Made by a program: the position numbers and the translations under genes
Notes under the pieces: model-generated
Seen by the model: only the letters and a program-made list of their open reading frames with translations
What the model was told of the DNA's origin: nothing
The model's database searches: none
IMG/VR virus record: IMGVR_UViG_3300032294_002964
Location: 28,078 to 92,077 of that record
Direction: 5' to 3' (one strand)
Length of the DNA stretch: 64,000 nucleotides
Source of the DNA: a virus
In this document: in pieces, positions 13,011-62,164 of the stretch
How the letters are laid out: each line of letters opens with the position of its first letter
Numbering within the stretch: the stretch's first letter is position 1

Positions 13011-13604
13011 TTAGATAAAATATTTCACTATATCCTTATTTAAGCCTCCATGATCAAAAATTTTACAGAATTTAAGATATTCATCATCTGAACCTCTAAA
13101 AAAAGTTCCTTCAAATCCTAATTTAGTTACCACATCACCAACATCAGAAACTGAATCTTCTGTCCAAAGACATCCAAATGGTCTAAATTCTGTTTCACTA
13201 TATAATACCTTTAAGCAGTTAATTAGAACTTCGAAATTATCCTGATCAAATAGACTATCATTAAATGAAACACACATATATTCATAAGATGGTATATCAC
13301 CAGATAAGATATATTTTAATTTATTCTTTTTGTTATCTGGAACCTCTCTATTAATTATTAGATAATCTGACATTAGTCCTAATTGATTATTAGTTAGTGT
13401 TGTATTTAATATATCTACAAAATCATCAGTATCGGTTATTGTTCTTAATCTTGCAGATTCAAAATATACATACCCAATATCGAATCCACTTATATTACCT
13501 ATATTATCTGTGAAATCATAAAAATAGCTTTTAACCTCATCTAATGATGGGAACTTACTTTCTAAATTATTAGACTCAAATATTTTGAATTTTTTTATTA
13601 TCAT
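13011..13604 (-). CDS. hypothetical protein with capsid-targeting-like N-terminal leader
   Basis: MIIKKFKIFES. Confidence 0.6.
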   Translation of the reverse strand: MIIKKFKIFESNNLESKFPSLDEVKSYFYDFTDNIGNISGFDIGYVYFESARLRTITDTDDFVDILNTTLTNNQLGLMSDYLIINREVPDNKKNKLKYILSGDIPSYEYMCVSFNDSLFDQDNFEVLINCLKVLYSETEFRPFGCLWTEDSVSDVGDVVTKLGFEGTFFRGSDDEYLKFCKIFDHGGLNKDIVKYFI

Positions 13605-14137
13605 AATTGAATATTATATTCTGATTTATCCGGTCTAACATAAACAATTTTAGAAATGTTCTTTATTTGATATTTGTAATTAGAATCGGCATATTTTTGT
13701 CCTAAACCTTTTTTAACATAGGCAATTGTAATATGTGGTTTATATTCTGGAAATTGATTAGAATTCGGAAGTTCTGATAATTTCTTATAAACCTCTTCTA
13801 ATTTAGGTGTCTTATTCACTTCAAGTTTAACAACATCAAATTCTGGATTTTCAAATAATGAAATACCACTAATTTCCACTTTGAAGTCATCTTCGGTAGC
13901 ATCTTGAAAACAACTTTGTATTTGCTCATCTGTAACTGTATCATGTATACCATATAATAAAGTTAGGTGTGGTCTTGGTTGTATTCCATAATTTTTACCT
14001 TCTACTTTATAAATATCTTCTTGTTGTATTGAATCTAATAGGTCGGACCAATTTGCAAAGTTATAGTCAACCATTACACAACCATACTCATATCTTGTTT
14101 GTGATTCTTTTATAAATTGTTTGTAATTTTTCATCAT
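13601..14137 (-). CDS. 2H phosphoesterase, T4 57B/Acb1-like, with N-terminal leader
   Basis: Two HxT motifs (PHLTLLYG, YKPHITIAY), GCVM near the N-terminus; leader MMKNYKQFIKES. Confidence 0.75.
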   Translation of the reverse strand: MMKNYKQFIKESQTRYEYGCVMVDYNFANWSDLLDSIQQEDIYKVEGKNYGIQPRPHLTLLYGIHDTVTDEQIQSCFQDATEDDFKVEISGISLFENPEFDVVKLEVNKTPKLEEVYKKLSELPNSNQFPEYKPHITIAYVKKGLGQKYADSNYKYQIKNISKIVYVRPDKSEYNIQL

Positions 14138-14169
14138 AAACTATTTATTAAATTTTTGATACAAAGATT

Positions 14170-14514
14170 GTGAATTGGTATAAAATATTTTTATGTGTTA
14201 GTGTTTTGTTTTTTGCACAGATAGTTACTTGGTTCCAGATGTTTGGTCAATTTAAGTGGGATTTCTTCAAAAACAATTTATTCTTAGTTTGTCTTACTGG
14301 TATACCAATAACATTAATGTATTATTACTCAACTAAATATGGAGTGGAAGGATTTGGAAATTCTTGGTCTTTAAGAATAGTTCAATTTGTAATGGGTATA
14401 ACTATATTTACGCTATTCAATTATTTCTTATTAGATGAGGGTATAGATAAAAAAAACACAATCTGTTTAGGATTGTGTTTTATAATTGTTTTAATACAAG
14501 CTTTTTGGAAGTAA
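14170..14514 (+). CDS. small 4-TM membrane protein (DMT/EamA-like)
   Basis: Four hydrophobic segments in 114 aa. Confidence 0.55.
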   Translation: MNWYKIFLCVSVLFFAQIVTWFQMFGQFKWDFFKNNLFLVCLTGIPITLMYYYSTKYGVEGFGNSWSLRIVQFVMGITIFTLFNYFLLDEGIDKKNTICLGLCFIIVLIQAFWK

Positions 14515-15363: not shown

Positions 15364-15438
15364 ATTTAAGATTAAAATTTATAATGTATATATTAAAATC
15401 CATTTTTTATTTTAAATACTCCTATTCTTCTAACTAAA

Positions 15439-16708: not shown

Positions 16709-17650
16709 ATGAATAAATTTGATTTTGAGCAAGTTAACCTTGTTCCACGCAAGTGTGTCGTTGATTCAAGGAGTGAGTGTGATACTTCTGTAAAATTCGG
16801 AAACTTCACATTTAAAATGCCTATTGTTCCTGCAAACATGGAATGTGTCATTGATGAAAATGTTGCTATAAAATTGGCAAAGGCAGGATACTTTTATATA
16901 ATTCACCGATTTAATGTTAATCCGATCTTATTCATTCTGCAAATGAAGAATCTTGGATTGGTTTCATCTATATCACTTGGAGTTAATGAAGACTCTTATA
17001 AGATTATTGATGAAATGAAGTCTACTAGTATGATACCAGACTTTATAACAATTGATATCGCACACGGTCATTCAATCAAAATGGAAAGAATGATTAAATA
17101 TATCAAAGAAAACTTACCTACTGTGTTTGTAATTGCTGGTAATATTTCAACATCTGACGCAGTTAGAGATTTAGAAGAATGGGGAGCTGACGCAACTAAG
17201 GTTGGAATTGGACCGGGAATGGCTTGTACTACTTGGCCGACAACTGGATTTGGATCGAGAAATTGTCAAGCTGCTACGGTATACAACTGTTCTCTTGTTG
17301 CTACTAAACCAATTGTTGCTGATGGTGGTATTCGTGTACCAGGTGACATTGCTAAAAGTTTAGTTCTTGGTGCTACTATGGTAATGGTTGGTGGGATGTT
17401 ATCCGGATTTAAAGACTCTCCAGGTCACTTAGTTAGTATTGATGGTAAATACAAAAAAGAATTTTGGGGATCAGCATCACAATTTCAATCAGGAAAATCA
17501 AATCGTATTGAAGGTACTAAAATTCTAGTTGATTATAAAGATCGTTCTATTTTAGATGAAATGAAATATTTAGAAGAATGTCTTCAAAGTTCAATTTCAT
17601 ACGGTGGTGGAACCGATCTTAGTTGTTTTTCTAAGGTTAAGTGGATTTAA
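16709..17650 (+). CDS. guaC: GMP reductase
   Basis: SRSECDT, PANM, TIDIAHGHS, KVGIGPG.ACTT, ADGGIR, FWGSAS; start set at MNKFDFE. Confidence 0.9.
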   Translation: MNKFDFEQVNLVPRKCVVDSRSECDTSVKFGNFTFKMPIVPANMECVIDENVAIKLAKAGYFYIIHRFNVNPILFILQMKNLGLVSSISLGVNEDSYKIIDEMKSTSMIPDFITIDIAHGHSIKMERMIKYIKENLPTVFVIAGNISTSDAVRDLEEWGADATKVGIGPGMACTTWPTTGFGSRNCQAATVYNCSLVATKPIVADGGIRVPGDIAKSLVLGATMVMVGGMLSGFKDSPGHLVSIDGKYKKEFWGSASQFQSGKSNRIEGTKILVDYKDRSILDEMKYLEECLQSSISYGGGTDLSCFSKVKWI

Positions 17651-18333
17651 ACTTCAAAGGTTACTTTAAAATCACCATGACTATAGTTATAACTGCTGAA
17701 ACCAAATCTATTACACACTAAATCAAATAGTTCTTCTACTTCTTTATCAATTTTACCATTGTAACTTGTGGATTCAAATTCTATTGTTACTTCAACCGCT
17801 TCTTTTGAATAATGTGGTCTATAATAGTCAAATGATAGATTTGTCAATCCGTATTTACTAAATAGTGACTCAATATCTTCTTCATCTGGCCATTTAAAAT
17901 CTTCATCTAGCTTTTGGTCTGGTTTAGAAAAATAGAATGATAACATCATGAATTTAACATCACCTTCATTATTAGGTGGTGGACTAGTACTAATTTTCAT
18001 ATCATACATTGACCAATCTTCATCTTTTAATCTACCTATTGTAGTTTGTATTTGACTAACAATAGATACAAAATCTGTATAATCTTTAACATCATGGAAT
18101 ACAATAATAAAGTGACCTCTGATCACATTTCCAGTATTTATAATTGGTTTGAAATTTTTATAACGAGAACTTTTATCAATATAGTCTTGATAATTCATAT
18201 CATCAATAGGTGACTTAAACAAGATTTTTCTATCATCATCTAAAAAATCTCGCATAGCATCAATAATTATATCCACTTCATTTTCATGAGTGTGATTTTC
18301 ATTTATTCTATTGAAATATTTTAAGTGTTTCAT
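17647..18333 (-). CDS. hypothetical protein with N-terminal leader
   Basis: MKHLKYFNRINE. Confidence 0.65.
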   Translation of the reverse strand: MKHLKYFNRINENHTHENEVDIIIDAMRDFLDDDRKILFKSPIDDMNYQDYIDKSSRYKNFKPIINTGNVIRGHFIIVFHDVKDYTDFVSIVSQIQTTIGRLKDEDWSMYDMKISTSPPPNNEGDVKFMMLSFYFSKPDQKLDEDFKWPDEEDIESLFSKYGLTNLSFDYYRPHYSKEAVEVTIEFESTSYNGKIDKEVEELFDLVCNRFGFSSYNYSHGDFKVTFEV

Positions 18334-18857
18334 TTTTTATCCTCTTCTATTGATGTATAATAAAAATCACATTTTAAATCTAAGAAATTTATAACATCAT
18401 CAAATTTCATTTGTTTATCAAAAATCTCTTTTCTTACATATTTATGCAAGTTGTCTAATGATTTTTGATAATATTCGTCTTTTATATCCATTTTAGACCA
18501 GTCAAAAGATGCTGATTTTTTACTATAAATTGAAAAACCTATTTTAATAACGCCAAAGTTGTCAGTCTTAACATTTAAAATAACAACTGGTTTCCATGCG
18601 TGTTTAGCAGCAGATAGTGATGTATTAAATTCTTTATGATATTTTTCTAACCATTCGCTATTACAAGGTCCACCACTCCACTCACCATTTCTTATGTACA
18701 TCTCCTTATAATCTTCAATCATCTTTGTAATTAAATCTTGATCTTTGCATTCGTATTTAGTACCGATTGAAATAGATACATCACATTCAGAACCATAGAT
18801 ATCTATAAGTCCTAAATCATCTTCTTCAAATTCTTCAAATATTTTTAAATATTTCAT
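18330..18857 (-). CDS. hypothetical protein with N-terminal leader
   Basis: MKYLKIFEEFEE. Confidence 0.65.
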   Translation of the reverse strand: MKYLKIFEEFEEDDLGLIDIYGSECDVSISIGTKYECKDQDLITKMIEDYKEMYIRNGEWSGGPCNSEWLEKYHKEFNTSLSAAKHAWKPVVILNVKTDNFGVIKIGFSIYSKKSASFDWSKMDIKDEYYQKSLDNLHKYVRKEIFDKQMKFDDVINFLDLKCDFYYTSIEEDKK

Positions 18858-19348
18858 ACTTCTAAAACAAATTGACCTCTATAAGCTTTAAAATCTTCTT
18901 TCTTCATTACAGTAATAACAGTTAAAGTGAACTCATTATCACCTGCCTCTAACTGACAAACAATATTTAAATTAGATTTTTTATTCTTTATAACAAATCT
19001 ATTTGGTTCACCTGCTCTAACACCACGAGTTGGATAATCATCTTCATCTTGATAAATATCAAATCTATCTTGCATTAATGCAATTGTTAATTCTTCAACT
19101 CCTGATTCAATTGTATCTAATATTTCATCTTTAGATATACCAGCTTCAATTTTACCACCAGTATCAGTAACCCCATGTCTATATTGTCTTGAAAGAGCAT
19201 GACCGATGGCCTCTACATCAATTCTAATTTCAACTGGCTGTTTGATATCACCAATAAATTCTGGACCCTTTCTATCCATTAATTTTGGACTCACATATCC
19301 AGGTCTAATGGCTTCAGATATTTGTTTGAATGATTTTAAATGTCTCAT
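18854..19348 (-). CDS. hypothetical protein with N-terminal leader, possible BECR/RelE-like fold
   Basis: MRHLKSFKQISE; HALSRQYRH...LTVITVM. Confidence 0.55.
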   Translation of the reverse strand: MRHLKSFKQISEAIRPGYVSPKLMDRKGPEFIGDIKQPVEIRIDVEAIGHALSRQYRHGVTDTGGKIEAGISKDEILDTIESGVEELTIALMQDRFDIYQDEDDYPTRGVRAGEPNRFVIKNKKSNLNIVCQLEAGDNEFTLTVITVMKKEDFKAYRGQFVLEV

Positions 19349-19378
19349 AGATTTATATATTAATTTAATAATATACTA

Positions 19379-19762
19379 TTAACGCCCGTAAATATTTATT
19401 GTATAGACAGATCCACCTGTCCAACCTATTTCACACTCAAGGCCTAATCTACTTAGTCTGTTGATGAACTCTCTCATATCCATTTGAAAGTCCTCTCCTA
19501 AATATCCATCAACACCAGCAGATCCAAAATAATCATCAAATAATATATCAATGGAAGCACACCAAGAACTTTCACTAGGAAATCTAAGAGAATAACAATT
19601 ATCAAGGTCTCCTGAGTGCCATCGTTGTAGATCATCAAAGTTATCTACATATTTTAAATCATATTGATCTGCATACTCTCTAAATATATCTAAAATATCA
19701 TCCAGATAATCATTGATTAAATATTTTTTAGACTCATTAAAATTTTTGAATTTTTTTATCAT
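19379..19762 (-). CDS. hypothetical protein with N-terminal leader
   Basis: MIKKFKNFNES. Confidence 0.65.
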   Translation of the reverse strand: MIKKFKNFNESKKYLINDYLDDILDIFREYADQYDLKYVDNFDDLQRWHSGDLDNCYSLRFPSESSWCASIDILFDDYFGSAGVDGYLGEDFQMDMREFINRLSRLGLECEIGWTGGSVYTINIYGR

Positions 19763-19766
19763 TTAA

Positions 19767-20621
19767 TTAGTAAATTATTATTCCAAGTTCGTGAAGTTCT
19801 TCACTACCATATTCCTCAATAAATTCATCTACTGGATAGAATTCATTTTCGTTTGTTAATTCGATGTCAATATTTAAATCATACTCAGACAAGAATGATT
19901 GTAGTCTTTTAATAGTTGGTAAAATATGATCATTAAATCTAAAAAAATTAAAAGAATTATCTTCTAAATCTATATTAATAGAGTCTTTTAATTCTGAATC
20001 TTTTTTCTCATAAAGCTTATGATATTGACCTATAGTAGAATCAACATCTATATCGTGTTCTTCTAAATCCAATAATATATCTTTAATATCATCAAAAATT
20101 AATTCAAGTGTTGACCTATCAACTGACTCATTAATATCTTCTAAATCTCTAAAAGTTAAATCTAAATAAATAACATGTCTTAGAGATTGTTTTTTGGCGA
20201 ATGGTAACTCATCAATATATCTTTTCATTCTTGAAATACTATTGAACCAAACACCATCAAATGTTCTTAAATAGATACTAGATAACTCTATATTAAATTG
20301 ACTCTCTACGTGTTTTATAGATGATTCAACCTCTTCAAAAAAATCATCATCAATAGCAAAAACTCCTTTTTCAAGTGGTTTCAATCTTATTGAAAAGCTT
20401 TTAAAGCTACCAAGATATCTACCATCTGGTCCTATTTTTGAAAATTCATTATGATCTGTAACTATTTCTTTATCACCCAATGATAGTGCATGTCCAGTAT
20501 AAACATCTGAAACTTCTAATCCACAATCTTTCACACCAACAAAAATATCTGAAATCTCTTGAACAGTTTCCTCACTCTCTTTATTAGATTCAAATAGTTT
20601 ATATGATTTTAAATATCTCAT
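19767..20621 (-). CDS. two-domain hypothetical protein with N-terminal leader
   Basis: MRYLKSYKLFES; internal DINES followed by a second copy of the I-x-D-I helix. Confidence 0.65.
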   Translation of the reverse strand: MRYLKSYKLFESNKESEETVQEISDIFVGVKDCGLEVSDVYTGHALSLGDKEIVTDHNEFSKIGPDGRYLGSFKSFSIRLKPLEKGVFAIDDDFFEEVESSIKHVESQFNIELSSIYLRTFDGVWFNSISRMKRYIDELPFAKKQSLRHVIYLDLTFRDLEDINESVDRSTLELIFDDIKDILLDLEEHDIDVDSTIGQYHKLYEKKDSELKDSINIDLEDNSFNFFRFNDHILPTIKRLQSFLSEYDLNIDIELTNENEFYPVDEFIEEYGSEELHELGIIIY

Positions 20622-20624: not shown

Positions 20625-21011
20625 TTATATATAAAAGTCTATATTTATTCTGGATGTATATGGCCAATTTTCATCCATTTTAAGACCAGATGTTCTCAAT
20701 CCTCTACTATCTAAATAGATGTAAAATGGAGAAATATCACCATCAGCACGATGAAAGTTTGCACTATATCTATAACCAATTTCATTCATAATAGAAATTG
20801 ACTTTTTTAAGGTATTTGAAATTAGGCTATCAAAGAAGAATATACCTCTACTTTTAATTGTAACTCTATATTCACTATTTCCACTATCATCATATCCTTT
20901 AAAAACTTCAACATCATATCCCTCATCTATTAAGTCTGTAAATATATCTTTAAGATGTTCTTGAACATCATCTAATGACTCATTTATGTTAAAATATTTA
21001 AGATACTTCAT
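20625..21011 (-). CDS. hypothetical protein with N-terminal leader
   Basis: MKYLKYFNINES. Confidence 0.65.
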   Translation of the reverse strand: MKYLKYFNINESLDDVQEHLKDIFTDLIDEGYDVEVFKGYDDSGNSEYRVTIKSRGIFFFDSLISNTLKKSISIMNEIGYRYSANFHRADGDISPFYIYLDSRGLRTSGLKMDENWPYTSRINIDFYI

Positions 21012-21790
21012 TACCTTTTAACCATGTAGAAGAAGCTTGAGTTTGATTGACCTTTTATTTCTTCTTCAACTTCTTTTATTTCTTCATTTCCCTGTGTAAT
21101 CATATCAGCAGAATTTATCTTAACACCACCTGGTAAAGTGTAGTCATATCTACCAGTTAAATTACCATATTGTTTCTTAGCCCAACCGGTTACCCACTTT
21201 ACAAATAAATCATCCTTGAATAAGTATTCAGGTCTTATATTAGCATAACCTTCAATCACAACATCATATTTTACATTTGTTAAAATGTGTAATCTATGTT
21301 GCAATTGATTAAAGTGATATTTAAGTGTATATTTATTTAATTGATTCAACATATCAGACATCGAATCAAGTATTGTTTTATAAACACCTAACTCACCTAT
21401 TGTTGTTACATATGATGATAGATATGGTTGATTAGTAACACCAAGGTTTACAGATAGGTTTGGTGTGTTTATACCTAATTGTAATAAGCTCTGTGATCTA
21501 ACTTCGTATAAATATGAAATAGTTTGTATCTCACAAGGCACATTAACATATCTATACTTTGTAAATTCTTCTGTTTGAAATGCTTCTTGATGTATCATAA
21601 AATACATTTTTTGAACAGCATACTGATAATTTCTATAAAAATAAGGAAGTGCCCTTGTTTCTATAATTCTTCGGATTTCAGAATCTGGTAAAACTTTTGG
21701 AAGTGCACAACCCACCGTTATTTCATTTTGAACGAAGTCTATTAATTCTTCAATGGTATATCCATCATTGTATGGTACATATTCATCCAT
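21011..21790 (-). CDS. neck/head-completion protein, T4 gp13-like
   Basis: AKKQYGNL...YTLPGGVKIN...EIKEVEEEI matches the gp13-type C-terminus; TAATATATA upstream. Confidence 0.65.
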   Translation of the reverse strand: MDEYVPYNDGYTIEELIDFVQNEITVGCALPKVLPDSEIRRIIETRALPYFYRNYQYAVQKMYFMIHQEAFQTEEFTKYRYVNVPCEIQTISYLYEVRSQSLLQLGINTPNLSVNLGVTNQPYLSSYVTTIGELGVYKTILDSMSDMLNQLNKYTLKYHFNQLQHRLHILTNVKYDVVIEGYANIRPEYLFKDDLFVKWVTGWAKKQYGNLTGRYDYTLPGGVKINSADMITQGNEEIKEVEEEIKGQSNSSFFYMVKR

Positions 21791-26010: not shown

Positions 26011-26019
26011 TAATATATA
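26011..26019 (+). promoter_or_regulatory. putative phage late promoter TAATATATA
   Basis: One representative of about 15 copies placed just upstream of gene starts. Confidence 0.55.
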
Positions 26020-26041: not shown

Positions 26042-27280
26042 ATGATTAGTTATTCAGAATATTTACTTGAAAAAAAGCTAGAAAAACTCTTTGAGTCTAA
26101 TATTAAGTTCTCAAAGGGTTTTTTGGGTGCATTAAACTCCATAGATACACCATTATCTAAAAAAATAATGTCATTGCAAAATAATGATGTTGATGTTCAA
26201 TACAACTATATTGATGTTACTGAAGAAAATGATAGTGTGAGTTTCACACCTGATAGAAAAGCTCAAGAAATAATAGCTGGTAAAGAAGAAGTATATAAAG
26301 TGGTTGATAGTGGAAGATATTTAACAAATTCTGAAAGAAATCAACATATCTATGATAGACTAAATCATGAAAGACCTGAAAGTGTTTATCAACCAGAGGT
26401 TGGAACAGTTGGTAAAATATTAGGTGAAACTACTGGAACAACTGGTAAAATATACTGTCTTTTTGAGTGTACGAGTGAGGGTGATAAAGGTAAAAGAACA
26501 ATTATAAACAAAGAGGCTTTAGAGTCTTATGATGCCAGCTTTGACAAAGTTTGGAGCACAAGTAGAAATAAGATAAAAATAGGAAGAGTTATTAGAGCTC
26601 TTCTTAGAGCAGCTGGTATCCAATCAAATGATGCTGAAATTGAAAAGTTTGTAAATCAATACAAATCTACAATTGATATTATCAATGACGCATTCAATAA
26701 ATTTGATGTTGTCAAGGCTTTTGATATTATACACTGGTACAATTATGAAAATTATACTTATGGGACAAATAAGGGGACTTTAGGAAGTTCTTGTATGGCA
26801 GAAGTTCCAGATTCTTGGCTTTATATTTATAGAGCTAATCCAGATATTTGTAATTTGGTTATACTATATGATGAAAGTGGTAAAATCCAAGATGGTAAAT
26901 ATAAATCTGAAAAGATAATAGGAAGAGCACTTCTTTGGACAACAAGAGATGGATATAAATTCATGGATAGAATTTACACTGCAAAAGATAGTGATATTGA
27001 TCTATTCAAAAAATTTGCAGATAGAAATGGCTGGTGGTCTAAAAGAAATCAAAATTCAGGAAGCGGATTTTCAATTGAAAAGGGCGCTGAGGTTAAAAGT
27101 ACACCAACTATAATAGTTGATCTTCAAAAATGGGATGATGAATTTCCATATCTTGATTCACTCATGTATTTAAATAATGAAACTGGTGAAATTTCAAACG
27201 ATGGTGAATCTATAAAAGCAAATTATCTATTACAAAGTACAAGTGGTGGATATGATGAAATAGAAGAGGATGATTATTAA
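26042..27280 (+). CDS. conserved phage protein with N-terminal leader
   Basis: MISYSEYLLE; enzyme-like blocks GTLGSSCM, IGRALLW, FMDRIY, FPYLDS; function unknown. Confidence 0.65.
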   Translation: MISYSEYLLEKKLEKLFESNIKFSKGFLGALNSIDTPLSKKIMSLQNNDVDVQYNYIDVTEENDSVSFTPDRKAQEIIAGKEEVYKVVDSGRYLTNSERNQHIYDRLNHERPESVYQPEVGTVGKILGETTGTTGKIYCLFECTSEGDKGKRTIINKEALESYDASFDKVWSTSRNKIKIGRVIRALLRAAGIQSNDAEIEKFVNQYKSTIDIINDAFNKFDVVKAFDIIHWYNYENYTYGTNKGTLGSSCMAEVPDSWLYIYRANPDICNLVILYDESGKIQDGKYKSEKIIGRALLWTTRDGYKFMDRIYTAKDSDIDLFKKFADRNGWWSKRNQNSGSGFSIEKGAEVKSTPTIIVDLQKWDDEFPYLDSLMYLNNETGEISNDGESIKANYLLQSTSGGYDEIEEDDY

Positions 27281-32075: not shown

Positions 32076-33338
32076 TTAATTATCTTCATTTTCAGGATCA
32101 GACTCTTGAAAGAATAGTGTTGGATCTTTCTTCTTCAAGAAGTCTCTTGACTTTAAAAGTCTTTCATTTTGATCTCTGACCCAATCTTTTGCGAGTTCAT
32201 ACGGCTCAATCCCTTTAGTCATTTGCATTACATAACCAAAGTTTGGTTCTTTCTTATAGTATTTAAGAGCATATTCCTTTCTATCAGAACCCATATCAAG
32301 GAATACTTGATATGATTTCTTAATATCTTCTTCTTTATCACTAACCGCCTTCTTGATAATAGAAATTATCTTATTAATTCTCTCATGTGCTTCTTTTTCA
32401 TCTTCTGGGACTTGTCCTAAGATATCATCAATCTTATCATCTAAGATATAACCTACGATGATATGTTCACGATACAAATCATTTGTAAGAAGACCATGAC
32501 GCTCGCAATACCAAGGAGTCTTGATTTTGAAAAAGAAATCTTTTCCATATTCATCCTCAGTTTGAACAATCACACCTTCTTTATCAACTTGAGTTGCATT
32601 CACTTCAATAAGTGAATCTAAATCTTTAGAATCATCTTCAAATGGTGCAATTCTGATAGTAGATATCTTATCTAAGTGATCTTTTATATTTAAATGTTTT
32701 CCAGTAGAATTATCTCTCATTCTCAAAAGAATAAGATCCTCTTCCAAGTATCTTAATACAATTCTATTTGCAGGAGATACATACTCAAAAATTGCAGTAA
32801 TATTGTTATCTATACACCAATCAACAAATTCTTTAACATCTGCTCTGGTTCTATAAACTCTATTGATACCATTAGCTTGTTCATTATCAAATCCCATTTT
32901 AGATTTACCTAAAATTTTACCATTTGGTAATTGAATATATGATGCAATAGATCCATCCTCTTTGTTGTTTACAAATTTTATTTTGTAATTTTTAACAATA
33001 GAGTATGCAGACTCTGGTACTTGATTTAAGTTAAAGAACTTCTCAAGTAGTAAGAATCTTTTATATAGAGTACCATCAGTATTAAATACGAAAGTAAGAC
33101 CTCTCATTTCATATGCTTTAACTTCTGGTCTATTTTCTAATGGAGTGACAAAATCTCGATATTGAGCAAGTCGGTAATTGAAAACAGATATTGGATATCC
33201 ATCAATCACAAATTTAGACTCATAGAATGGAGACTCTTCTCTAGAGCACATCTCGACACAATCTTCATAAGTTGGAAGATAGTGTGATGATAAGTCTGTT
33301 GATTCTTTTAAAAATTCTATGTAGTTAAATATTTTCAT
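32076..33338 (-). CDS. rnlA: T4 Rnl1-like RNA ligase with N-terminal leader
   Basis: EMRGL, KFFN, motif I KEDGS, FEY, EGVIV, KIK; leader MKIFNYIEFLKES. Confidence 0.85.
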   Translation of the reverse strand: MKIFNYIEFLKESTDLSSHYLPTYEDCVEMCSREESPFYESKFVIDGYPISVFNYRLAQYRDFVTPLENRPEVKAYEMRGLTFVFNTDGTLYKRFLLLEKFFNLNQVPESAYSIVKNYKIKFVNNKEDGSIASYIQLPNGKILGKSKMGFDNEQANGINRVYRTRADVKEFVDWCIDNNITAIFEYVSPANRIVLRYLEEDLILLRMRDNSTGKHLNIKDHLDKISTIRIAPFEDDSKDLDSLIEVNATQVDKEGVIVQTEDEYGKDFFFKIKTPWYCERHGLLTNDLYREHIIVGYILDDKIDDILGQVPEDEKEAHERINKIISIIKKAVSDKEEDIKKSYQVFLDMGSDRKEYALKYYKKEPNFGYVMQMTKGIEPYELAKDWVRDQNERLLKSRDFLKKKDPTLFFQESDPENEDN

Positions 33339-33978
33339 TCTTTATGAATTCAAATTTTGGATGCAAATATATGGAATTATCTTTTTCTTCTATATCAAAA
33401 TCTTTTTTAATCATTTGCATTGCTTCTTCATATGTGTCTTTGTAATCTTGTACAAAGCTTAGATCTTTAATATATTTAGTGTGTTTATTGACATTTAATT
33501 TTATACCATCGTCATATAGACCAATTGAAATTTTACCGTTATACTTAGTATTGAATATTTTCTGAATAATAATAAACTTGTTAATATTATTAATCATAAA
33601 CATATCTTGAATTATAGATATTGTGTATTCCACTCCATATCCATTTTCAACACTAACTTTATCCTCATCAACTCCAATTTCATCACAGAAATTACCTAAA
33701 CATCCTAAAAAATCTTGTTGAAACTCTTTATATTCTTTGAAATTTAAAACATTATGACTTGGTCTACTAATGTAAATTACAATTTGTTTATTACATTCTA
33801 CCTGATCTACTTTAGTACTATCTAAAAATCTTTTTAAAGCTTGTGAAATTGTTTTACCTGACTCTCCGTTTCCATCACTATGAACAACATAATGTTCACT
33901 TCCTATTCTAGGAATCCAACCATTATCAATTAAATCAATAAATGCATCTCTTAGTAATTCCTCTGTTATTTTTTTCAT
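33325..33978 (-). CDS. hypothetical protein (I-x-D-x-F-x-D-L family)
   Basis: LLRDAFIDLIDNG. Confidence 0.6.
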   Translation of the reverse strand: MKKITEELLRDAFIDLIDNGWIPRIGSEHYVVHSDGNGESGKTISQALKRFLDSTKVDQVECNKQIVIYISRPSHNVLNFKEYKEFQQDFLGCLGNFCDEIGVDEDKVSVENGYGVEYTISIIQDMFMINNINKFIIIQKIFNTKYNGKISIGLYDDGIKLNVNKHTKYIKDLSFVQDYKDTYEEAMQMIKKDFDIEEKDNSIYLHPKFEFIKNENI

Positions 33979-34472
33979 CTTTCTATATAATCTTTGTGTA
34001 CTATTGTTATGGAATGATCAACATTCCAGAAAATTTCAGAATCTATTGAGTGTAATGCTTTTGACCATAGATCATCATAACCAAGCGATTGATACCTATT
34101 ACGAAGATGGTGCAACTCATTCGTTGGATTGTCTTTTGGTAAAATTTTATCAACTTGTTTAACTGTTTTTATTTTAGTATCGTCAAATAATACATATAAA
34201 TCTTCTGATGATAAGTGTGAAATTATACTTTTAAATTCATTTTTAAACTCTTCGATATTAATATTGTTTAAGTCAAATCTAATAGTGTATCGATACTCAA
34301 ACATATCAGAGATGTCACTTGGGACAGCTTTCTGAATACGTTTACAGTATACACCACTTAGATCTCCTAAATTATTCATTAAATCTCTGATAAAATCAGA
34401 TAGATAATTTACATCTAATTTTGTTGGATTGCCTTTATTAGCTTTAAAAAAGTCCACAAATTTTTTAATCAT
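33975..34472 (-). CDS. hypothetical protein with partial N-terminal leader
   Basis: MIKKFVDFF; TAATATATA at 34480-34488. Confidence 0.6.
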   Translation of the reverse strand: MIKKFVDFFKANKGNPTKLDVNYLSDFIRDLMNNLGDLSGVYCKRIQKAVPSDISDMFEYRYTIRFDLNNINIEEFKNEFKSIISHLSSEDLYVLFDDTKIKTVKQVDKILPKDNPTNELHHLRNRYQSLGYDDLWSKALHSIDSEIFWNVDHSITIVHKDYIER

Positions 34473-40024: not shown

Positions 40025-40105
40025 TAAAAATTATTATTTTTTATTTATAGTGGGTAACTTGAATTTAGTTGAAGATTGTAAAATCTCATTTTAATATATA
40101 ATGAT

Positions 40106-56411: not shown

Positions 56412-56879
56412 ATGATAATATTAATTAGATGTGATAAAGAAGTCAGAAGTTATAATAACTGGACGACTACTTTTAATTCGGAAATTGGGGATATTAATGA
56501 GGTATTTACCAGTAATGGATTATCTACGCTTCTTCTATATAAAAGAAAACTACCTGATGAAGTTAGAAAATCTACAACTCAAAAAAGAGGAATAGGTTCA
56601 ATTTCGTCACTTGATTTTTCACTATTAACACAAGACTGCATTCTATTATATCATGGTGATGTTCTTGATGAACAGAAAGATGTGAAGGCTATTGAGGAGT
56701 TATTTCAACTTTGTCACAACAATCAAAAACATCTAGTTCTACAATTTAGTTTAGAAAACCAACATTTGATTAATCATATTTGTACTGGATCGGAAGTCTA
56801 TATTCATAGAGATGAATTGAAGACATTCTTAGTAAGACTAGATCGAGAATTAAAGATTAGTAAACTATTTAGCGAATAG
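56412..56879 (+). CDS. hypothetical protein with C-terminal motif
   Basis: Ends DRELKISKLFSE. Confidence 0.6.
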   Translation: MIILIRCDKEVRSYNNWTTTFNSEIGDINEVFTSNGLSTLLLYKRKLPDEVRKSTTQKRGIGSISSLDFSLLTQDCILLYHGDVLDEQKDVKAIEELFQLCHNNQKHLVLQFSLENQHLINHICTGSEVYIHRDELKTFLVRLDRELKISKLFSE

Positions 56880-57453
56880 CAATATAATTTCCTTTCCACT
56901 TCATAGGTGGTAATTTATAGTCAAACATAATCCAATCAATTTTTACATCACTATTTTTTAAATAGTGTTCAAATCTACTAATTGGATAAGAAAGTATTTT
57001 TTTTGGATCTATGTTGGTACTCCTATCTAAATCATCCACTACATCCATTGTCACTGCTTTTCTCAAAACGGAGTGGTTGGTAAAAGACCTTTTTTTGGCA
57101 ATTGTATGAAATTGAATATCTAATTCTTTAAGAATATTTTTTGAAACAGGTTCAAAACCTTCACTCAGTAAATAATTATGTAGGTGAGTTATTGATTGAA
57201 AATCATCCGAATCTAAATAGTGTTCATTTTTTAATAGAAAATGAGGAGAAAATACTTTAAATTTAAACTCGTTATGTGCTTTGGTTCCAGGAAAAACATT
57301 AACATCATCTATTCCATAGCTATAGTTTATTTCAAAACCATCATCCTTTAGAACAGATAATATATCATTGACATTATTGAGAATTTCTTCTCTAAAAGGA
57401 TCACCGTCAAATGGATCTTTTGACTCTAAAAATAATTTCCAGTTCTTAATCAT
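56869..57453 (-). CDS. hypothetical protein with N-terminal leader
   Basis: MIKNWKLFLES; paralog of the next ORF (HLHNYLLSEGFEP / HLDSYLRSEEFEP). Confidence 0.65.
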   Translation of the reverse strand: MIKNWKLFLESKDPFDGDPFREEILNNVNDILSVLKDDGFEINYSYGIDDVNVFPGTKAHNEFKFKVFSPHFLLKNEHYLDSDDFQSITHLHNYLLSEGFEPVSKNILKELDIQFHTIAKKRSFTNHSVLRKAVTMDVVDDLDRSTNIDPKKILSYPISRFEHYLKNSDVKIDWIMFDYKLPPMKWKGNYIAIR

Positions 57454-57914
57454 AGTTTAATTAATTCTCCAATTTTAAAAATATTTCCATTTTTATCATT
57501 ATAAAATCTTAGATAATCAGGTAGATTATATTGAAAATCAATTCTAGTTAAATCGATAACATCCTTATTTACACCAGTTAACATTTTTAGTAATGTGCTA
57601 ATAGGATACTGAGTAAGTTGTCCACTTCTTCTTTGAACAACAACATCTAATTCCTTACCGACAGAAGAATGAGGTTCAAATTCTTCACTTCTTAAATAAC
57701 TATCCAAGTGTAATACAGTTTGAACTTCCTCTATTCCTATTTTTCCCTCTATTATAAAAGAAACCTTAACTTTACCAAACTCTTCTACATAACTCCTTAT
57801 TAGAACTCTAATGTGGTGATCTACTTTCAAAGAAAGAAGAATATCTCTGATATTATCAAGTATTTCTTGGTCTCTACTATTTGACTCTAAAAATAATTTC
57901 CAGTTCTTAATCAT
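57419..57914 (-). repeat. 35-bp exact direct repeat encoding the leader of two tandem paralogs
   Basis: TTTGACTCTAAAAATAATTTCCAGTTCTTAATCAT at 57419-57453 and 57880-57914. Confidence 0.85.
57450..57914 (-). CDS. hypothetical protein with N-terminal leader
   Basis: MIKNWKLFLES. Confidence 0.65.
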   Translation of the reverse strand: MIKNWKLFLESNSRDQEILDNIRDILLSLKVDHHIRVLIRSYVEEFGKVKVSFIIEGKIGIEEVQTVLHLDSYLRSEEFEPHSSVGKELDVVVQRRSGQLTQYPISTLLKMLTGVNKDVIDLTRIDFQYNLPDYLRFYNDKNGNIFKIGELIKL

Positions 57915-58153
57915 CAGAATTCTATTTTTTCTACATTTTTTAATTCTACTTCATATTCTTTGCCATCAACTTCAACGGTGATTAAACCATCATCATCAAC
58001 ACTCATTGGATTGAGTGCCATATCTGGGTCATTATCTGGTAAATTATTTACAATAGTTGCATAGATAAATCCTTTACTCATTATGCATCTTCTGATATCC
58101 TCAAGGGTGAAGTTTTTATATTTAAATGCTTCAAAAAATTTCAAGTATCTCAT
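57914..58153 (-). CDS. small hypothetical protein with N-terminal leader
   Basis: Start reset to MRYLKFFEAF, directly after the palindromic promoter. Confidence 0.6.
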   Translation of the reverse strand: MRYLKFFEAFKYKNFTLEDIRRCIMSKGFIYATIVNNLPDNDPDMALNPMSVDDDGLITVEVDGKEYEVELKNVEKIEF

Positions 58154-58170
58154 TTTAATATATATTAAAA
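58153..58170. promoter_or_regulatory. palindromic, bidirectional putative late promoter
   Basis: TTTTAATATATATTAAAA contains TAATATATA on both strands, between divergent leader-bearing genes. Confidence 0.6.
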
Positions 58171-58183: not shown

Positions 58184-58963
58184 ATGAAGTACTTGAAAAA
58201 GTTCAATGAAGAACTTAAACCACAAACATATAAAAGTGCGGCTAGAAAACTTAATAAAATAGTTAAAGAGAAACCAGCTTTGGCTAAAGCTATTGGAGCA
58301 GAGAAAAGAGCTAAAGATCTTGAAGAATACGCGAAAAAAATTGAAGATTTAGGTCAAATTGATCAATGGAAAAAAAATATAGATCAGTTTTCTAAATATG
58401 GTGAGTTTAATATTGAACTATCAAGAAAGGGTGTTAGTAATCTTCTATCATCAAAAGTATATACATTTTATTTAGACTTGAGTACAGATATAGAAATGCT
58501 AATAGACTCTTGGGATGAAGAAGATCCAGATAATAGAGATATCTCATTTGGATTTGCAGGTGGTTTAATTCCTAAAAATATTGAAGATCTCAATGAGATT
58601 AAAATGAATTATACATCAGAATTTTATAATGGATTCTTTTGGGGATTTTGGTTATATGTAGACTATAAAGTTGAAAATAGTGAAGTCTCTTTTAAGGGAA
58701 TCAGATTGTATGATTATGATTCAGTGCCTAATATTCAGATTGCTGATAGAAAGTCAGTAGTAAATCTAAAGAAATTATTAGTTAATTGCTTTGATGAAAC
58801 ATTTGATTATCCAAGTGGATATAAAGATATTCCTAATATGTATGATAAAATTAATCAATCAGCTATTCAAGATCTTGAAATATCATCGACACATGGTATT
58901 GATATGGGTAGAATAAAAGAAGATATTAAAAATACACCAATAATGTCATTTTATAAACAATGA
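58184..58963 (+). CDS. hypothetical protein with N-terminal leader
   Basis: MKYLKKFNEE; paralog of the next ORF (TYKSAARKL/TYLKAGELL, ADRKS/SDRKS). Confidence 0.65.
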   Translation: MKYLKKFNEELKPQTYKSAARKLNKIVKEKPALAKAIGAEKRAKDLEEYAKKIEDLGQIDQWKKNIDQFSKYGEFNIELSRKGVSNLLSSKVYTFYLDLSTDIEMLIDSWDEEDPDNRDISFGFAGGLIPKNIEDLNEIKMNYTSEFYNGFFWGFWLYVDYKVENSEVSFKGIRLYDYDSVPNIQIADRKSVVNLKKLLVNCFDETFDYPSGYKDIPNMYDKINQSAIQDLEISSTHGIDMGRIKEDIKNTPIMSFYKQ

Positions 58964-59757
58964 AACACTTAAAGAAATTTGAAGAATTAAACATATCAAC
59001 ATATCTCAAAGCTGGTGAATTGCTTAGGAAGGGCGGACATAGCAAAAGAGGAGATAAAATGATTGATTGGGCGATGAAAGGTGAACTTAATAAAACACCC
59101 GAACTAAATCTGTGGATTAAATGGATGAACGAGTATCCGCCAAGAGGTGGTAGATCTGCTATTAAAAGGGGAATTGTCAGTGATCTACCTTTAAAGGTTA
59201 GAATAAATTCAATACATGTTAATTTAGATATGTTGAGTGAGGATATTAATTATCATAAAGATGAGAATAATTTTCCGATTTCACTGTCTATATCATTTAA
59301 TATAGATGAATCGGAACTTGAAAAGATTAATCCTGAGTACATTAAAAGTGTTAAAGATGAATGTAAATCTTCAAGTGGATTCAAATTATACCCAATGGAA
59401 CTTTATATGAGCTTTAAGTTAGATGAAAATGGACATATTGCTGAGAATCCTAAATTAAATATATTTTCATATAATGAAATAGGTGCGATGTTTAGTGATA
59501 GAAAGTCTGCTAACAATTTCAAAACAATTCTTAAAAAAGTATTAAGTAATGAAATAAAAGTCTATACTTATTATAAAGATGAAGATGATGATAGTCCAAT
59601 GACTAATTCTGAAGCCATTCTAGATAGAATACCTAAATTAATACCTACTATTGATATATCTGATGTAGAAATTATATTAGACGCATTTAAGAATATCAAT
59701 ACTAATAGTTTATATGCGGATGATCCAAATGATGCTTTGAAAAGAATTTCAAATTAA
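58960..59757 (+). CDS. hypothetical protein with N-terminal leader
   Basis: MKHLKKFEEL. Confidence 0.65.
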   Translation: MKHLKKFEELNISTYLKAGELLRKGGHSKRGDKMIDWAMKGELNKTPELNLWIKWMNEYPPRGGRSAIKRGIVSDLPLKVRINSIHVNLDMLSEDINYHKDENNFPISLSISFNIDESELEKINPEYIKSVKDECKSSSGFKLYPMELYMSFKLDENGHIAENPKLNIFSYNEIGAMFSDRKSANNFKTILKKVLSNEIKVYTYYKDEDDDSPMTNSEAILDRIPKLIPTIDISDVEIILDAFKNINTNSLYADDPNDALKRISN

Positions 59758-59881
59758 CTATATTTGCAGTATGATAACTAAGTATAAACTTTTCTGCGGC
59801 AATTAAAAAAATTTAAAGATGTGTTCAGTATATTTTGACTTTTTCGGTATTTATAATTAATATATAAAAATAAAAAAGTAT

Positions 59882-60742
59882 ATGAGAATATATTGGACAA
59901 AAGAGGAAGAAGATGAATTAAGATATTATTATGAAAATCTTGGATTATCGGTTTCTGAATTTTATAAGGATTTTATAAAAAAATATCCATATAGAACAAT
60001 AGAATCTTTGAAGATAAAGATAGTTAAACTTAAATTAAGGCATACAAAAGAACAAAAATTTCAAATAAAATCAAGGTTCACTAAGGGTGAAAATAATGGA
60101 ATGTTTGGTAAAGAAGGACCAAATAAAGGATTAACTAAAGATAATTCAGAAAGAATTAAAAATTCATCTGAGAAGATGTCTAAAACCAGAAAAGAAATGT
60201 TTAAGTGTGGATTATTATCATTATCAGGTGAAAACAATGGAATGTTCGGTAAAGATCCTTGGAATAAAGGTTTAACAAAATATACACATAATAGTTTATT
60301 GGAAGCTGGATTAAAGCAATCAAGATTCAGAAGAGAATATTGGGAATCTCTAAGTGATGAAGATAAAGACAAAATAGTTGGTGATTTATCACTTGCTGCT
60401 AATAAAGCTAAGAAAGACACAAAAATTGAAACCATAGTTAAAGATACACTTGATGGTTTAGATATTAAATATGTAAAAAACTTTAGGTGTGATAGATATA
60501 TTTTTGACTTTTATCTAACAGATTTTAATTTTGTAATAGAGTGTCAAGGTGATTACTGGCATGGTAACCCTGAGTATTTTAATGAGCTTAACGAGATACA
60601 ATTAAAAAACTTGGAAAGAGATAAGAGAAAGATAAATTATTTACAAGAAAATAATATAAAATCATTATATTTGTGGGAAAATGAAATATATAAATTTAAG
60701 ACAAATCTTGATAAAATAATCTTAGATAAGATAAATGAGTAA
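59882..60742 (+). CDS. putative free-standing homing endonuclease (NUMOD3-like repeats + Vsr/DUF559-like domain)
   Basis: GENNGMFGK twice, WNKGLTK, DF...IECQGDYWH, RDKRK, LWENEI. Confidence 0.75.
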   Translation: MRIYWTKEEEDELRYYYENLGLSVSEFYKDFIKKYPYRTIESLKIKIVKLKLRHTKEQKFQIKSRFTKGENNGMFGKEGPNKGLTKDNSERIKNSSEKMSKTRKEMFKCGLLSLSGENNGMFGKDPWNKGLTKYTHNSLLEAGLKQSRFRREYWESLSDEDKDKIVGDLSLAANKAKKDTKIETIVKDTLDGLDIKYVKNFRCDRYIFDFYLTDFNFVIECQGDYWHGNPEYFNELNEIQLKNLERDKRKINYLQENNIKSLYLWENEIYKFKTNLDKIILDKINE

Positions 60743-61922
60743 GTATATAAAAAAATATAAACAATTTGTAAATGAGAACAAAATCTCAACTGAGATTCCT
60801 TTGCCAAATGATATCATAGAGATATCAAATGCTTATATTGACGCAGATAAAGATATTTTCTTAGTTGGTGGTGCTGTTAGGGATTTTATTCAAGGAATTG
60901 AACCTAAAGATTATGATCTAGTTACAAACGCTCTTCCTAATGAATCAAAAGAAATATTAAAAGGATTTAATGTCTCTGATGAACAGGGTAAAAATTTCGG
61001 AGTGCTTAGAGTTTTTACAAAAGATGAACCAACTGGGTATGAAATTGCGTCATATAGAAGAGATATTTCTGGTGGTAGAGATACCAAGGGTGACGACCAA
61101 AAGGTTGAAATGGGTGGTGATGTTACAATAGAAGATGATTGTAATAGACGAGACCTAACTATGAATGCCTTATTCTATGATATCAAAAACAAACAAATTG
61201 TTGATTTAGTTGGTGGTGTTGAGGATATCAAAAATGGAATAGTTAGAGCGGTTGGTGACGCTGGGCAAAGATTTATAGAAGACCGATTAAGAATCTGTAG
61301 AATATTTAGATTTGCAGCAAGAACCGGTGGTGAAATAGACTCAAAAACAGCTCAAGCTATTAGAAATGATAATAGATTAAAAGGAGTTGGACCTAAAGAT
61401 GATGTTTCTCAAGAAAGAGTATGGGAAGAAATTAAAAAGGCTTTCAAACAGGCTAAATCTTTTAAACATTATCTTGAATTCTTTAATGAGTTTGATATGT
61501 GGGAAGAAGTATTTCCAGGATCTAAAATCAATACAGATATTGATGAATGTGAAGAACTAACTTCATATGTTGCAAACCTGTTTAAGCTTGAAAACACTTC
61601 TAGATTAGAACAGAAAATGATCTTAGAGTATAAGATTGAATCTGATATTGCTACTAAAGTTGTTTTCCTAATTGACTTACTTCAATTGACTGTTGAGACT
61701 GCATTTGATCTTTACAAAAAGAAGATTAGATGTCATGTTACAAACCATCAAATTATTGATTGGTTGGATACTAATGGTATACATAAGTCTATCTTTATTA
61801 GATTTATTGATTATGTACCAACTGTATCTGCAGAAGATTTAATGTCACAAGGATTCAAGGGTAGAGAACTTGGTGATGAAATAAAAAAGAGAGAAATTGA
61901 AAAATTTAAACAAATGTTATGA
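60735..61922 (+). CDS. cca: class II tRNA nucleotidyltransferase (CCA-adding) / poly(A) polymerase family, with N-terminal leader
   Basis: LVGGAVRD, KDYDLVT, RRDLTMNA, FIEDRLR, RFAAR, SQERV; leader MSKYIKKYKQFVNE. Confidence 0.88.
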   Translation: MSKYIKKYKQFVNENKISTEIPLPNDIIEISNAYIDADKDIFLVGGAVRDFIQGIEPKDYDLVTNALPNESKEILKGFNVSDEQGKNFGVLRVFTKDEPTGYEIASYRRDISGGRDTKGDDQKVEMGGDVTIEDDCNRRDLTMNALFYDIKNKQIVDLVGGVEDIKNGIVRAVGDAGQRFIEDRLRICRIFRFAARTGGEIDSKTAQAIRNDNRLKGVGPKDDVSQERVWEEIKKAFKQAKSFKHYLEFFNEFDMWEEVFPGSKINTDIDECEELTSYVANLFKLENTSRLEQKMILEYKIESDIATKVVFLIDLLQLTVETAFDLYKKKIRCHVTNHQIIDWLDTNGIHKSIFIRFIDYVPTVSAEDLMSQGFKGRELGDEIKKREIEKFKQML

Positions 61923-62164
61923 AAAAATTCACAGAGTCGATAGATAACAACGAGGAGAATGATTTCTCAATAGAGTCTGTACAGGCAAAACTTAGAAATA
62001 AGTTAGGTCCTTTTTGGACTCTATCTGAGATGATTTCAAATTCCGATACATTTGAAAAACTTCTTTCAACTGAAAAAGGAAGAGAATTAATTATTGGATG
62101 TGCTAAACAATGTGAGTTAAATAAAGAAAGAATCTTAGAACTTATAAAAATAACAGAGGAGTGA
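61919..62164 (+). CDS. small hypothetical protein with short leader
   Basis: MKKFTES. Confidence 0.5.
   Translation: MKKFTESIDNNEENDFSIESVQAKLRNKLGPFWTLSEMISNSDTFEKLLSTEKGRELIIGCAKQCELNKERILELIKITEE

Follow-up and report, generated by a model that had tools for sequence, protein, structure and literature searches.

A recurrent N-terminal leader on about 20 proteins of a huge-phage genome fragment: a candidate capsid-targeting peptide resembling that of phage T4

Introduction

The stretch of virus DNA analysed here – the window – is 64,000 nucleotides long and comprises bases 28078-92077 of a linear IMG/VR virus record (IMGVR_UViG_3300032294_002964, hereafter G000) of 92,077 bp with a guanine-plus-cytosine (GC) content of 29%. 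The source phage is uncultivated, and CheckV puts the completeness of the 92-kb record at 13%, so that the phage from which the window comes should measure some 0.6-0.7 Mb. About 20 of its proteins begin with similar peptides of 8-14 residues placed in front of otherwise dissimilar bodies. Here, we describe this leader, the genes that carry it, and its resemblance to the capsid-targeting sequence (CTS) of phage T4.

The sole nucleotide match of the record in the phage collection is LR745206.1, an uncultured phage of 634,780 bp. This is among the four largest curated genomes reported by Al-Shayeb et al. 2020 and belongs to the Mahaphage clade, for which Bacteroidetes hosts are predicted (PMC7162821). 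The window is syntenic with the region at approximately 440-520 kb of LR745206, and that genome serves throughout as the closest complete point of comparison.

Results

Tagged genes of the window

Open reading frames (ORFs) were called from ATG only, and 36 N-terminal residues lost to GTG or TTG starts were disregarded. A profile hidden Markov model (HMM) was trained solely on LR745206 leaders and then applied to other genomes. The leader occurs in two versions, type A, MK[YH][LI]Kx[FY](0-4 residues)E[SN], and type B, MI(I)KK[YFW]xxF[IL]xE[SN]. The genes concerned are as follows, with a slash marking the predicted cut, 'motif' referring to the promoter-like sequence treated below, and E values being those of the leader HMM unless a family is named.

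13011..13604, minus strand: 197 residues, MIIKKFKIFE/S, type B leader on a body without family; E 1e-4
13601..14137, minus strand: 178 residues, MMKNYKQFIKE/S on a 2H phosphoesterase, LigT/Acb1-like (PF13563, 2.7e-10; PF23474, 2e-6); E 0.009
17647..18333, minus strand: 228 residues, MKHLKYFNRINE/N; E 2e-4
18330..18857, minus strand: 175 residues, MKYLKIFE/E; E 4e-7
18854..19348, minus strand: 164 residues, MRHLKSFKQISE/A, with AATATATA at 19361-19354, 5 nt from the ATG; E 1.5e-4
19379..19762, minus strand: 127 residues, MIKKFKNFNE/S; E 3e-4
19767..20621, minus strand: 284 residues, MRYLKSYKLFE/S, motif at 20633-20626, 4 nt from the ATG; E 1e-6
20625..21011, minus strand: 128 residues, MKYLKYFNINE/S; E 3e-5
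21011..21790, minus strand: untagged first gene of the operon running from 21790 to 17647, with AATATATA at 21819-21812; product matches the C-terminal part of phrog_211, 'head-tail adaptor Ad2' (3e-15)
26042..27280, plus strand: 412 residues, MISYSEYLLE/K, motif at 26012-26019; pattern match only, E 0.98
32076..33338, minus strand: 420 residues, MKIFNYIEFLKE/S on a T4 Rnl1-type RNA ligase (PF09511, 6e-21)
33975..34472, minus strand: doubtful, 165 residues, MIKKFVDFFKANK, without the Glu, motif at 34487-34480; E 0.035
35323..35886, minus strand: 187 residues, MKISKFTDFINE/N; E 0.08
40106..41668, plus strand: 520 residues, MSKIRSYNKFNE/E, motif at 40093-40100, 5 nt from the ATG; body matches phrog_1462 (unknown function); E 0.003
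56869..57453, minus strand: 194 residues, MIKNWKLFLE/S, paralogue of the gene at 57450; E 0.003
57450..57914, minus strand: 154 residues, MIKNWKLFLE/S; E 0.002
57914..58153, minus strand: 79 residues from the ATG at 58153, MRYLKFFE/A; E 0.005
58184..58963, plus strand: 259 residues, MKYLKKFNE/E; E 1.5e-6
58960..59757, plus strand: 265 residues, MKHLKKFE/E, weak paralogue of the gene at 58184; E 2e-6
60735..61922, plus strand: 395 residues, MSKYIKKYKQFVNE/N on a CCA-adding/poly(A) polymerase-type nucleotidyltransferase (PF01743, 5e-29; domain from residue 41); E 3e-6
61919..62164, plus strand: weak short candidate, 81 residues, MKKFTE/S; E 0.68

An earlier note on this DNA had proposed that about 20 proteins of the window share a T4-like leader, and all 20 N-termini that it quoted are present. 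The N-termini are real, although the positions given with them are the low ends of the ORFs, which puts the leaders of the 13 genes on the minus strand at the high end (e.g. 13604, not 13011); the true start of the gene listed at 57914 is the ATG at 58153. Over the whole record, the profile picks out 19 of 127 ORFs at E<=0.01, a number that grows to 23 at E<=0.1. The window holds 15 of the 19 (13011, 13601, 17647, 18330, 18854, 19379, 19767, 20625, 40106, 56869, 57450, 57914, 58184, 58960 and 60735), and four additional tagged genes lie directly upstream of it in the same record. Scores are borderline for 32076, 33975 and 35323 (E 0.03-0.25) and poor for 26042 and 61919; judged by pattern, three to five extra window ORFs fit (32076, 35323, 26042, 61919 and, doubtfully, 33975). 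Searches of the window's orphan cargoes against PHROGs and PADLOC gave almost no matches.

The leader is tied to the extreme N-terminus. The pattern M[KR][YH]LK.[FY] occurs at 10 of the 127 N-termini of the record and at none of 480 internal Met or 26,632 other positions, with a mean of 0.002 in 500 shuffles; a looser pattern gives 18 occurrences where 1.1 are expected. Tenacibaculum phage PTm1 has the same GC content (29.7%) and no hits, so base composition is not the cause. Shuffles, internal-position counts and this control together rule out chance or AT-rich composition as the source of the leader. The Glu stands at residues 8-14 in the window; in LR745206, 88 of 108 leaders have it at residue 8, 9 or 11.

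A peptide carried by unrelated bodies

Synonymous codons at the conserved leader positions track genome-wide usage (Lys AAA 53, AAG 19; Leu in five codons; Ser as both TCN and AGT). Because synonymous codons are free and Ser is drawn from both codon families, selection is on the amino acids of the peptide, and a conserved DNA or RNA element such as a recombination site or translation enhancer is ruled out.

Among 24 tagged proteins of the record, one similar pair is left in an all-against-all BLAST comparison once the first 16 residues are removed, and the 114 tagged proteins of LR745206 fall into 108 BLAST clusters with six detectable paralogue pairs. Tagged proteins are 63 to 1284 residues long; of those in LR745206, about 100 of 111 have no Pfam match, and the remainder include NFACT-R, M15 peptidase, NUDIX, RNase T, DHH, Toprim and MazE-like proteins. 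These comparisons, together with the differing Pfam folds, argue strongly against a single paralogous family. The tagged RNA ligase illustrates the arrangement: residue 5 of T4 RnlA aligns with residue 24 of the window protein, so leader and linker form a 19-residue extension added on to a known enzyme. An AlphaFold model of this ligase (30 orthologues) has a mean predicted local distance difference test score (pLDDT) of 57.7, with residues 1-21 below 50 and a short helix at residues 6-12, and given this poor score in the leader the model is silent on docking.

Between G000 and LR745206, orthologues share 57% identity over the first 12 residues, 42% over the next 18, and 37% in the body, and 10 of 23 tagged cargoes of the record have no homologue in LR745206. 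The T4 internal proteins show a similarly fast turnover. Three LR745206 paralogues of 1284, 641 and 458 residues (592352-596206, 249113-251038 and 101389) have leaders of different lengths (MKYISRFHLNEN, MKLHKYNHFLGIKPLNEN and MKSINEN), which end in [LI]NE/N just ahead of the homologous body; from its sequences, the trio is consistent with a body that begins at the predicted cut.

Resemblance to the T4 capsid-targeting sequence

In T4, the CTS (MKTYQEFIAE / MKTFKEF...) is carried by the internal proteins IPI, IPII and IPIII (Mullaney & Black 1996; reviewed in PMC9026906, PMC3012670). Mutagenesis assigned residues 4 and 7 to targeting and residues 8 and 10 to processing; the gp21 protease cuts after L/I-X-E, and the gp23 propeptide has 65 residues (PMC9026906). 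In the complete T4 genome, IPII and IPIII start MKTYQEFIAE/A and IPI starts MKTFKEFTS....

The likeness to this sequence drawn in the earlier note is borne out, in that the conserved leader residues are those mapped in T4 as targeting and processing determinants. The leader HMM, which contains no T4 sequence, ranks IPI 3rd, IPIII 4th and IPII 6th among 273 T4 N-termini. The first rank goes to gp61.1 (AF158101 18966-19130, minus strand), an uncharacterised protein of 54 residues starting MKTFKEFIKED, which outscores IPI-III and by its sequence looks like a CTS-bearing protein.

The best-sampled leader is that of the RNA ligase, for which 120 orthologues (>=71% identity) give M-K-I-[FH]-N-Y-x-x-F-[IL]-[KR]-E-S, in which F9 and E12 never vary and Y6 hardly does. 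Residues Y6, F9, [IL]10 and E12 correspond to T4 CTS positions 4, 7, 8 and 10 at an offset of two, and S13 is also kept. Type B leaders retain Y..F[IL].E, and type A leaders retain L/I4 and F/Y7 with a variable distance to the Glu. The 26042 leader has the T4 CTS length with Y4, Y7, L8 and E10; it is identical to the T4 CTS at positions 1, 4, 6 and 10, conservative at 7 and 8, and differs little from I-x-YSEYLAE, the LR745206 scaffold repeat described below.

The pattern [YFW]..[FY][ILV].E[SNHA] occurs at four places in all T4 proteins: the IPII CTS, the IPIII CTS, the gp23 site FGSFLTE/A (residues 59-66) and one other. In LR745206 it is found at 12 N-termini, at 10 sites in the protease-scaffold protein, and at 11 places elsewhere.

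Head genes of the relatives and the predicted cleavage site

Prohead protease and scaffold genes, which the earlier note had proposed to locate, are present in the relatives, with none on the 92-kb record itself. LR745206, LR756501 and LR756500 have portal, protease-scaffold and capsid genes in T4 order. Those of LR745206 encode a portal protein (phrog_213, 2e-59), a gp23-like capsid protein (PF07068, 7e-26), and between them a protease-scaffold of 707 residues (198546-200669). The first 265 residues of the protease-scaffold are a head-maturation protease (phrog_207, 4e-30; PF03420 at a sub-threshold 20 bits), and its scaffold part contains approximately 13 tandem 14-residue repeats, NIxYSEY[LI]AE/N[LV]DK. 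The repeats are the same in the 735-kb phage and degenerate in the 462-kb phage, and PTm1 has LSE/G and ITE/S instead. The density of [ILVF].E[SNAG] in the protease-scaffold is 2.77 per 100 residues (proteome 0.47 +/- 0.46), ranking 2nd of 387. From this packing of hydrophobic-X-Glu-small sites in the scaffolds of the clade, the lineage protease very probably keeps the T4 rule, in which a hydrophobic residue, any residue and Glu are followed by a small residue. It is with a site of this kind that the leaders end.

Leaders anchored on the Glu carry 1.0-2.2 bits of information at each position from P10 to P1', followed by 0.4 and 0.1 bits. At P3, 69 of 108 leaders (64%) have F, I or L, and 70% have S, N or A at P1'. 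Such an abrupt end of conservation is the boundary expected of a removable propeptide, and the cleavage itself is one that we infer.

Two further relationships between leader and scaffold were considered and rejected. Copying of the scaffold repeat by the leader does not fit, since the leader HMMs miss the repeats and the two have only Y..[FY][IL].E[SN] in common, the 26042 leader being the sole near copy in the window; the claim is accordingly limited to a shared cleavage-type site and does not extend to mimicry. No co-variation of leader variant with scaffold repeat is evident across the three lineages.

Other LR745206 genes bear on the head module. One on the minus strand (460435-460686) encodes 83 residues with four scaffold-type 14-residue repeats (YEDYIAES, YSEYISEN, YCDYLCEN and YSDYLKD), ends in the C-terminal tag described below (RKKKIKNLFN), and is possibly a small accessory of the core or scaffold. 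The capsid gene is followed immediately by two leader-bearing genes (202508-202897 and 204294-204803) that share its orientation and have a peptidase gene (phrog_4191) between them. Their products are of 129 residues (MIKKYKLFKEG; the likely source of the NFACT-R Pfam hit) and of 169 residues, acidic (MKINKYKKFLEKD).

Distribution among phages

HMM hits at E<=0.01 were counted across genomes, with LR756500, LR756501 and Lak-B1 represented by their first 400 kb only.

LR745206 (training genome): 114/916 ORFs
G000 (this record): 19/127 ORFs
LR756500 (462 kb): 29/530 ORFs, MKYIKEYEEFINE variant
LR756501 (735 kb): 19/526 ORFs, MIKKFKLFES variant
Lak-B1 (TAG read as Gln): 2/444 ORFs
Tenacibaculum phage PTm1 (cultured, GC 29.7%, same head module): 0/313 ORFs
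T4: 1/273 ORFs

The tag is confined to this clade, and the census marks its expansion as a trait of the largest Mahaphage genomes rather than of AT-rich Bacteroidetes phages generally. The earlier note had spoken of an expansion far beyond the three internal proteins of T4; with the tag on 12-15% of ORFs, it is larger than was claimed. A literature search for a described CTS expansion in huge phages found none.

Promoter-like motifs at tagged genes

Two promoter-like motifs are recurrent in LR745206. The first, [AT]ATATATA (the TATATATA motif), lies upstream of 181 ORFs, including those for portal, protease, capsid, sheath and other large structural proteins; the second, TAnnTTTG, of the Bacteroidetes housekeeping type, lies upstream of 119. 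In LR745206 the first motif is enriched at tagged genes (53/112 versus 128/804; odds ratio 4.7, P 1e-12), at which the second is under-represented (6/112 versus 113/804; P 0.01). On the record, [AT]ATATATA precedes the gene or its operon in 21 of 24 cases, in keeping with the report of TAATATATA upstream of most tagged genes or operons. The earlier note would have abandoned its reading had leaders been equally common on early non-virion genes; they go instead with the head-gene motif and away from the host-type one.

The distance from [AT]ATATATA to the ATG is bimodal in LR745206, at 4-5 nt (74 cases) and 19-25 nt. Short spacings in the window are seen for the motifs at 19354-19361, 20626-20633, 40093-40100 and 58159-58166, and a palindromic TATATATA region at 58157-58166 is common to the divergent tagged genes 57914 and 58184. 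By analogy with the promoter-to-start spacing of T4 late genes, the 4-5 nt class would yield leaderless mRNAs. Two window genes, 52088-54229 (a 713-residue orphan) and 54787-56373 (HNH-family, 528 residues), have TATATTTG upstream, of the Bacteroidetes housekeeping -7 type, which points to an early class of their own, transcribed by the host polymerase.

A second, C-terminal tag

A C-terminal motif, R-[DE]-x-K-[IL]-x-x-[IL]-[LIF], ends 66 of 916 LR745206 proteins and 13 of 127 in the record (7-10%), and matches just 13 internal sites across 195,636 residues. Window examples are the ORFs at 15475-16008, 16005-16364, 42797-43252, 46518-46886, 48813-49121, 51668-52048, 52088-54229 and 56412-56879. 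No LR745206 protein has both this tag and the N-terminal leader, where about 8 are expected (P 1.6e-4).

The spacing of the C-terminal tag is PIP-box-like, with D/E/N replacing Q. In LR745206, the tag also closes the ORF at 189488-189649, a continuation of a small gp55-like sigma protein (189151-189516; Sigma70_r2, E 0.005). The C-terminus of T4 gp55 binds the sliding clamp, and by this analogy the tag might be a clamp-binding motif.

Other genes of the window

Genes of T4-type replication and accessory functions in the window encode a gp32-like single-stranded DNA-binding protein, both topoisomerase II subunits, dCMP deaminase and an RNase H-like exonuclease; others encode a NusG-like protein, glycosyltransferases, DnaJ (22984-24036) and DnaK, or Hsp70 (27319-29190). 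The DnaJ and DnaK homologues were recognised by N-terminal sequence only, and their genes have neither the tag nor the TATATATA motif. Two large paralogues of 646 and 869 residues (5831-7771 and 7778-10387) are 35% identical across 610 residues and gave no family matches; they are probably structural or fibre-like. A AATATATA motif and a terminator-like hairpin lie upstream of 7778-10387.

Discussion

A capsid-targeting propeptide as the favoured explanation

In the explanation that we favour, the leader serves as a capsid-targeting propeptide of the T4 type, which the prohead protease takes off and which has been multiplied onto >100 cargoes; from the sequence evidence, we put its probability at about 0.55. 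The leader would be a short amphipathic segment, M-K-[YH]-[LI]-K-x-[FY] or M-I-K-K-[YFW]-x-x-F-[IL]-x, closed by [FIL]-x-Glu with Ser, Asn or Ala as the next residue, that docks nascent cargo on the scaffold core of the assembling prohead. The gp21-type protease, scaffold-fused in this clade, would then cut after the Glu and free the mature cargo inside the head, to exit with the DNA at the next infection. Docking, cleavage, packaging and injection are all predicted steps. The cargo would be a fast-turnover set of >100 proteins, mostly orphan and acidic, including enzymes of RNA-repair or counter-defence type (the Rnl1 RNA ligase, the CCA-adding enzyme and the 2H/Acb1-like phosphoesterase), with NUDIX, RNase T, DHH, M15 peptidase and MazE-like proteins also in the relative.

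A broader proposition, which we hold tentatively and at somewhat less than even odds, is that Mahaphages (462-735 kb) load >100 proteins per capsid by means of a T4-derived address peptide, among them an injected RNA-repair and counter-defence kit, and that with the C-terminal tag included about 20% of the proteome is addressed. That would be protein sorting on a scale for which no phage example is known. If the tag acts as the T4 CTS does, sequence alone would be enough to list the 'first-minute' proteome that the largest known phages inject, with >100 candidate counter-defence or host-takeover proteins per genome, mostly orphans. This would provide a handle on the purpose of the extra coding capacity of huge phages, turn a mechanism known from 3-4 T4 proteins into proteome-scale sorting, and supply a short tag of natural origin with which foreign proteins could be loaded into very large capsids.

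Several observations weigh against a capsid destination. Tagged proteins are more acidic than others (median isoelectric point 4.8 versus 5.5, P 3e-10), unlike T4 IPI-III, which are basic, and T4 RnlA and CCA enzymes are cytoplasmic and not known to be packaged. The T4 matches to the leader HMM are weak in absolute terms (E 0.07-0.2 at 6-8 bits, and 6-11 bits for gp61.1 and IPI-III together), the same HMMs fail to retrieve the scaffold repeats, and P3 is not hydrophobic in the shortest leaders (MKYLKxFE/S), so that the T4 L/I-X-E rule is unmet there. PTm1 and Lak-B1, with a protease-scaffold of the same kind, lack the tag family, and no head genes were found on the 92-kb record, which is a 13% fragment. 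The TATATATA motif also lies upstream of both topoisomerase II genes and is thus not strictly a head-gene signal; the mutually exclusive tags suggest a broader sorting system with several addresses; and a tag on so large a share of ORFs is a scale without precedent.

Alternative explanations

The strongest competitor, although an unlikely one, is that the tag is a docking helix, cleaved or not, for a destination other than the capsid: the membrane, a replication or assembly factory, a chaperone (DnaK/DnaJ) or some other hub. The Lys-plus-aromatic composition of the short amphipathic segment resembles that of membrane-targeting helices, the phage encodes its own DnaK and DnaJ, and the acidic, enzyme-rich cargo, the exclusive C-terminal tag on 7-10% of proteins and a promoter motif not limited to head genes would all sit comfortably with such a role. 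It leaves unexplained, however, why the Glu is invariant and followed by a small residue, why conservation breaks off there, why the leader matches the T4 CTS determinants and the gp23 cleavage site, and why the tag profile retrieves T4 internal proteins. Nucleus-shell or tubulin genes were not noticed in the window, in which no search was aimed at them.

We consider it more doubtful still that the leader aids expression or stability, either in the translation of leaderless or Shine-Dalgarno-less late mRNAs or by protecting from, or marking for, proteolysis. About one-third of tagged genes have TATATATA merely 4-5 nt from the ATG, their first codons are AU-rich, and no Shine-Dalgarno sequences are visible. 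Yet 65 untagged genes share a spacing of 0-8 nt, half of the tagged genes have no nearby motif, and the RNA sequence is not conserved, given the free synonymous variation and the two Ser codon families. Conservation moreover reaches residues 8-14 and stops at a protease-like site, and PTm1, with the same GC content and host phylum, has no such leader. Inheritance of a shared N-terminus by very diverged paralogues of one expanding family, with no address function, is highly improbable: the tandem arrays (13-21 kb and 56-62 kb), the detectable paralogue pairs (two in the record, six in LR745206) and the mostly orphan bodies, in which deep homology is possible, are outweighed by tagged proteins of 63 to 1284 residues with unrelated folds (Rnl1 ligase, PolyA_pol nucleotidyltransferase, 2H phosphoesterase, NUDIX, RNase T, M15 peptidase, DHH and Toprim), by the extension relative to T4 RnlA, and by identity that is at background directly past the tag.

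Comparison with known systems

The proposed capsid-targeting role has its closest parallel in T4. Both peptides lie at the extreme N-terminus (8-14 residues here, 10-19 in T4) and have an M-K start, aromatic or hydrophobic residues at 4 and 7, I/L at 8, and a final Glu followed by a small residue. Both are carried by otherwise unrelated, fast-evolving proteins (in LR745206, 108 clusters among 114 proteins). The clade, as known from the relatives of the record, has T4-type portal, gp21-like protease, scaffold and gp23-like capsid genes. The systems differ in scale, with 20-plus tagged proteins per 92 kb and >110 per genome here versus 3-4 in T4, and in the dominant leader, MKYLKxF(N)ES being a distinct variant. 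The cargo here is acidic and includes enzymes, whereas that of T4 is small and basic; the protease of this clade is fused to a repeat-rich scaffold, the host is of the Bacteroidetes, and the system is known from sequence alone.

Phages phiKZ, 201phi2-1 and SPN3US also have large capsids, dozens of internal proteins – 201phi2-1 has 89 virion proteins – and a gp21-related protease cutting after Glu, with head and ejection propeptides removed by gp175/gp245 at S/A/G-X-E (PMC5694885, PMC10052503, PMC9026906). Their propeptides are long and without a shared short consensus, and the group, a different lineage made up of chimalliviruses and relatives, has virion RNA polymerases. Membership in this group does not describe the phages studied here, in which P3 is F, I or L and not S/A/G and the head module is gp23/gp21-like.

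Encapsulin cargo-loading peptides provide a cellular parallel, in that a short portable peptide suffices to load unrelated enzymes into an HK97-fold shell, as proposed here. They differ in being usually C-terminal and uncleaved, in binding the shell protein directly, and in serving cellular nanocompartments rather than virions. The Dar proteins of phage P1 are loaded through an ordered hierarchy of protein-protein interactions (via DarA/Hdf), with no common N-terminal consensus on many cargoes, but they share with the role proposed for the leader the loading of counter-defence proteins into the head and their injection together with the DNA (PMC9024508, PMC12810830).

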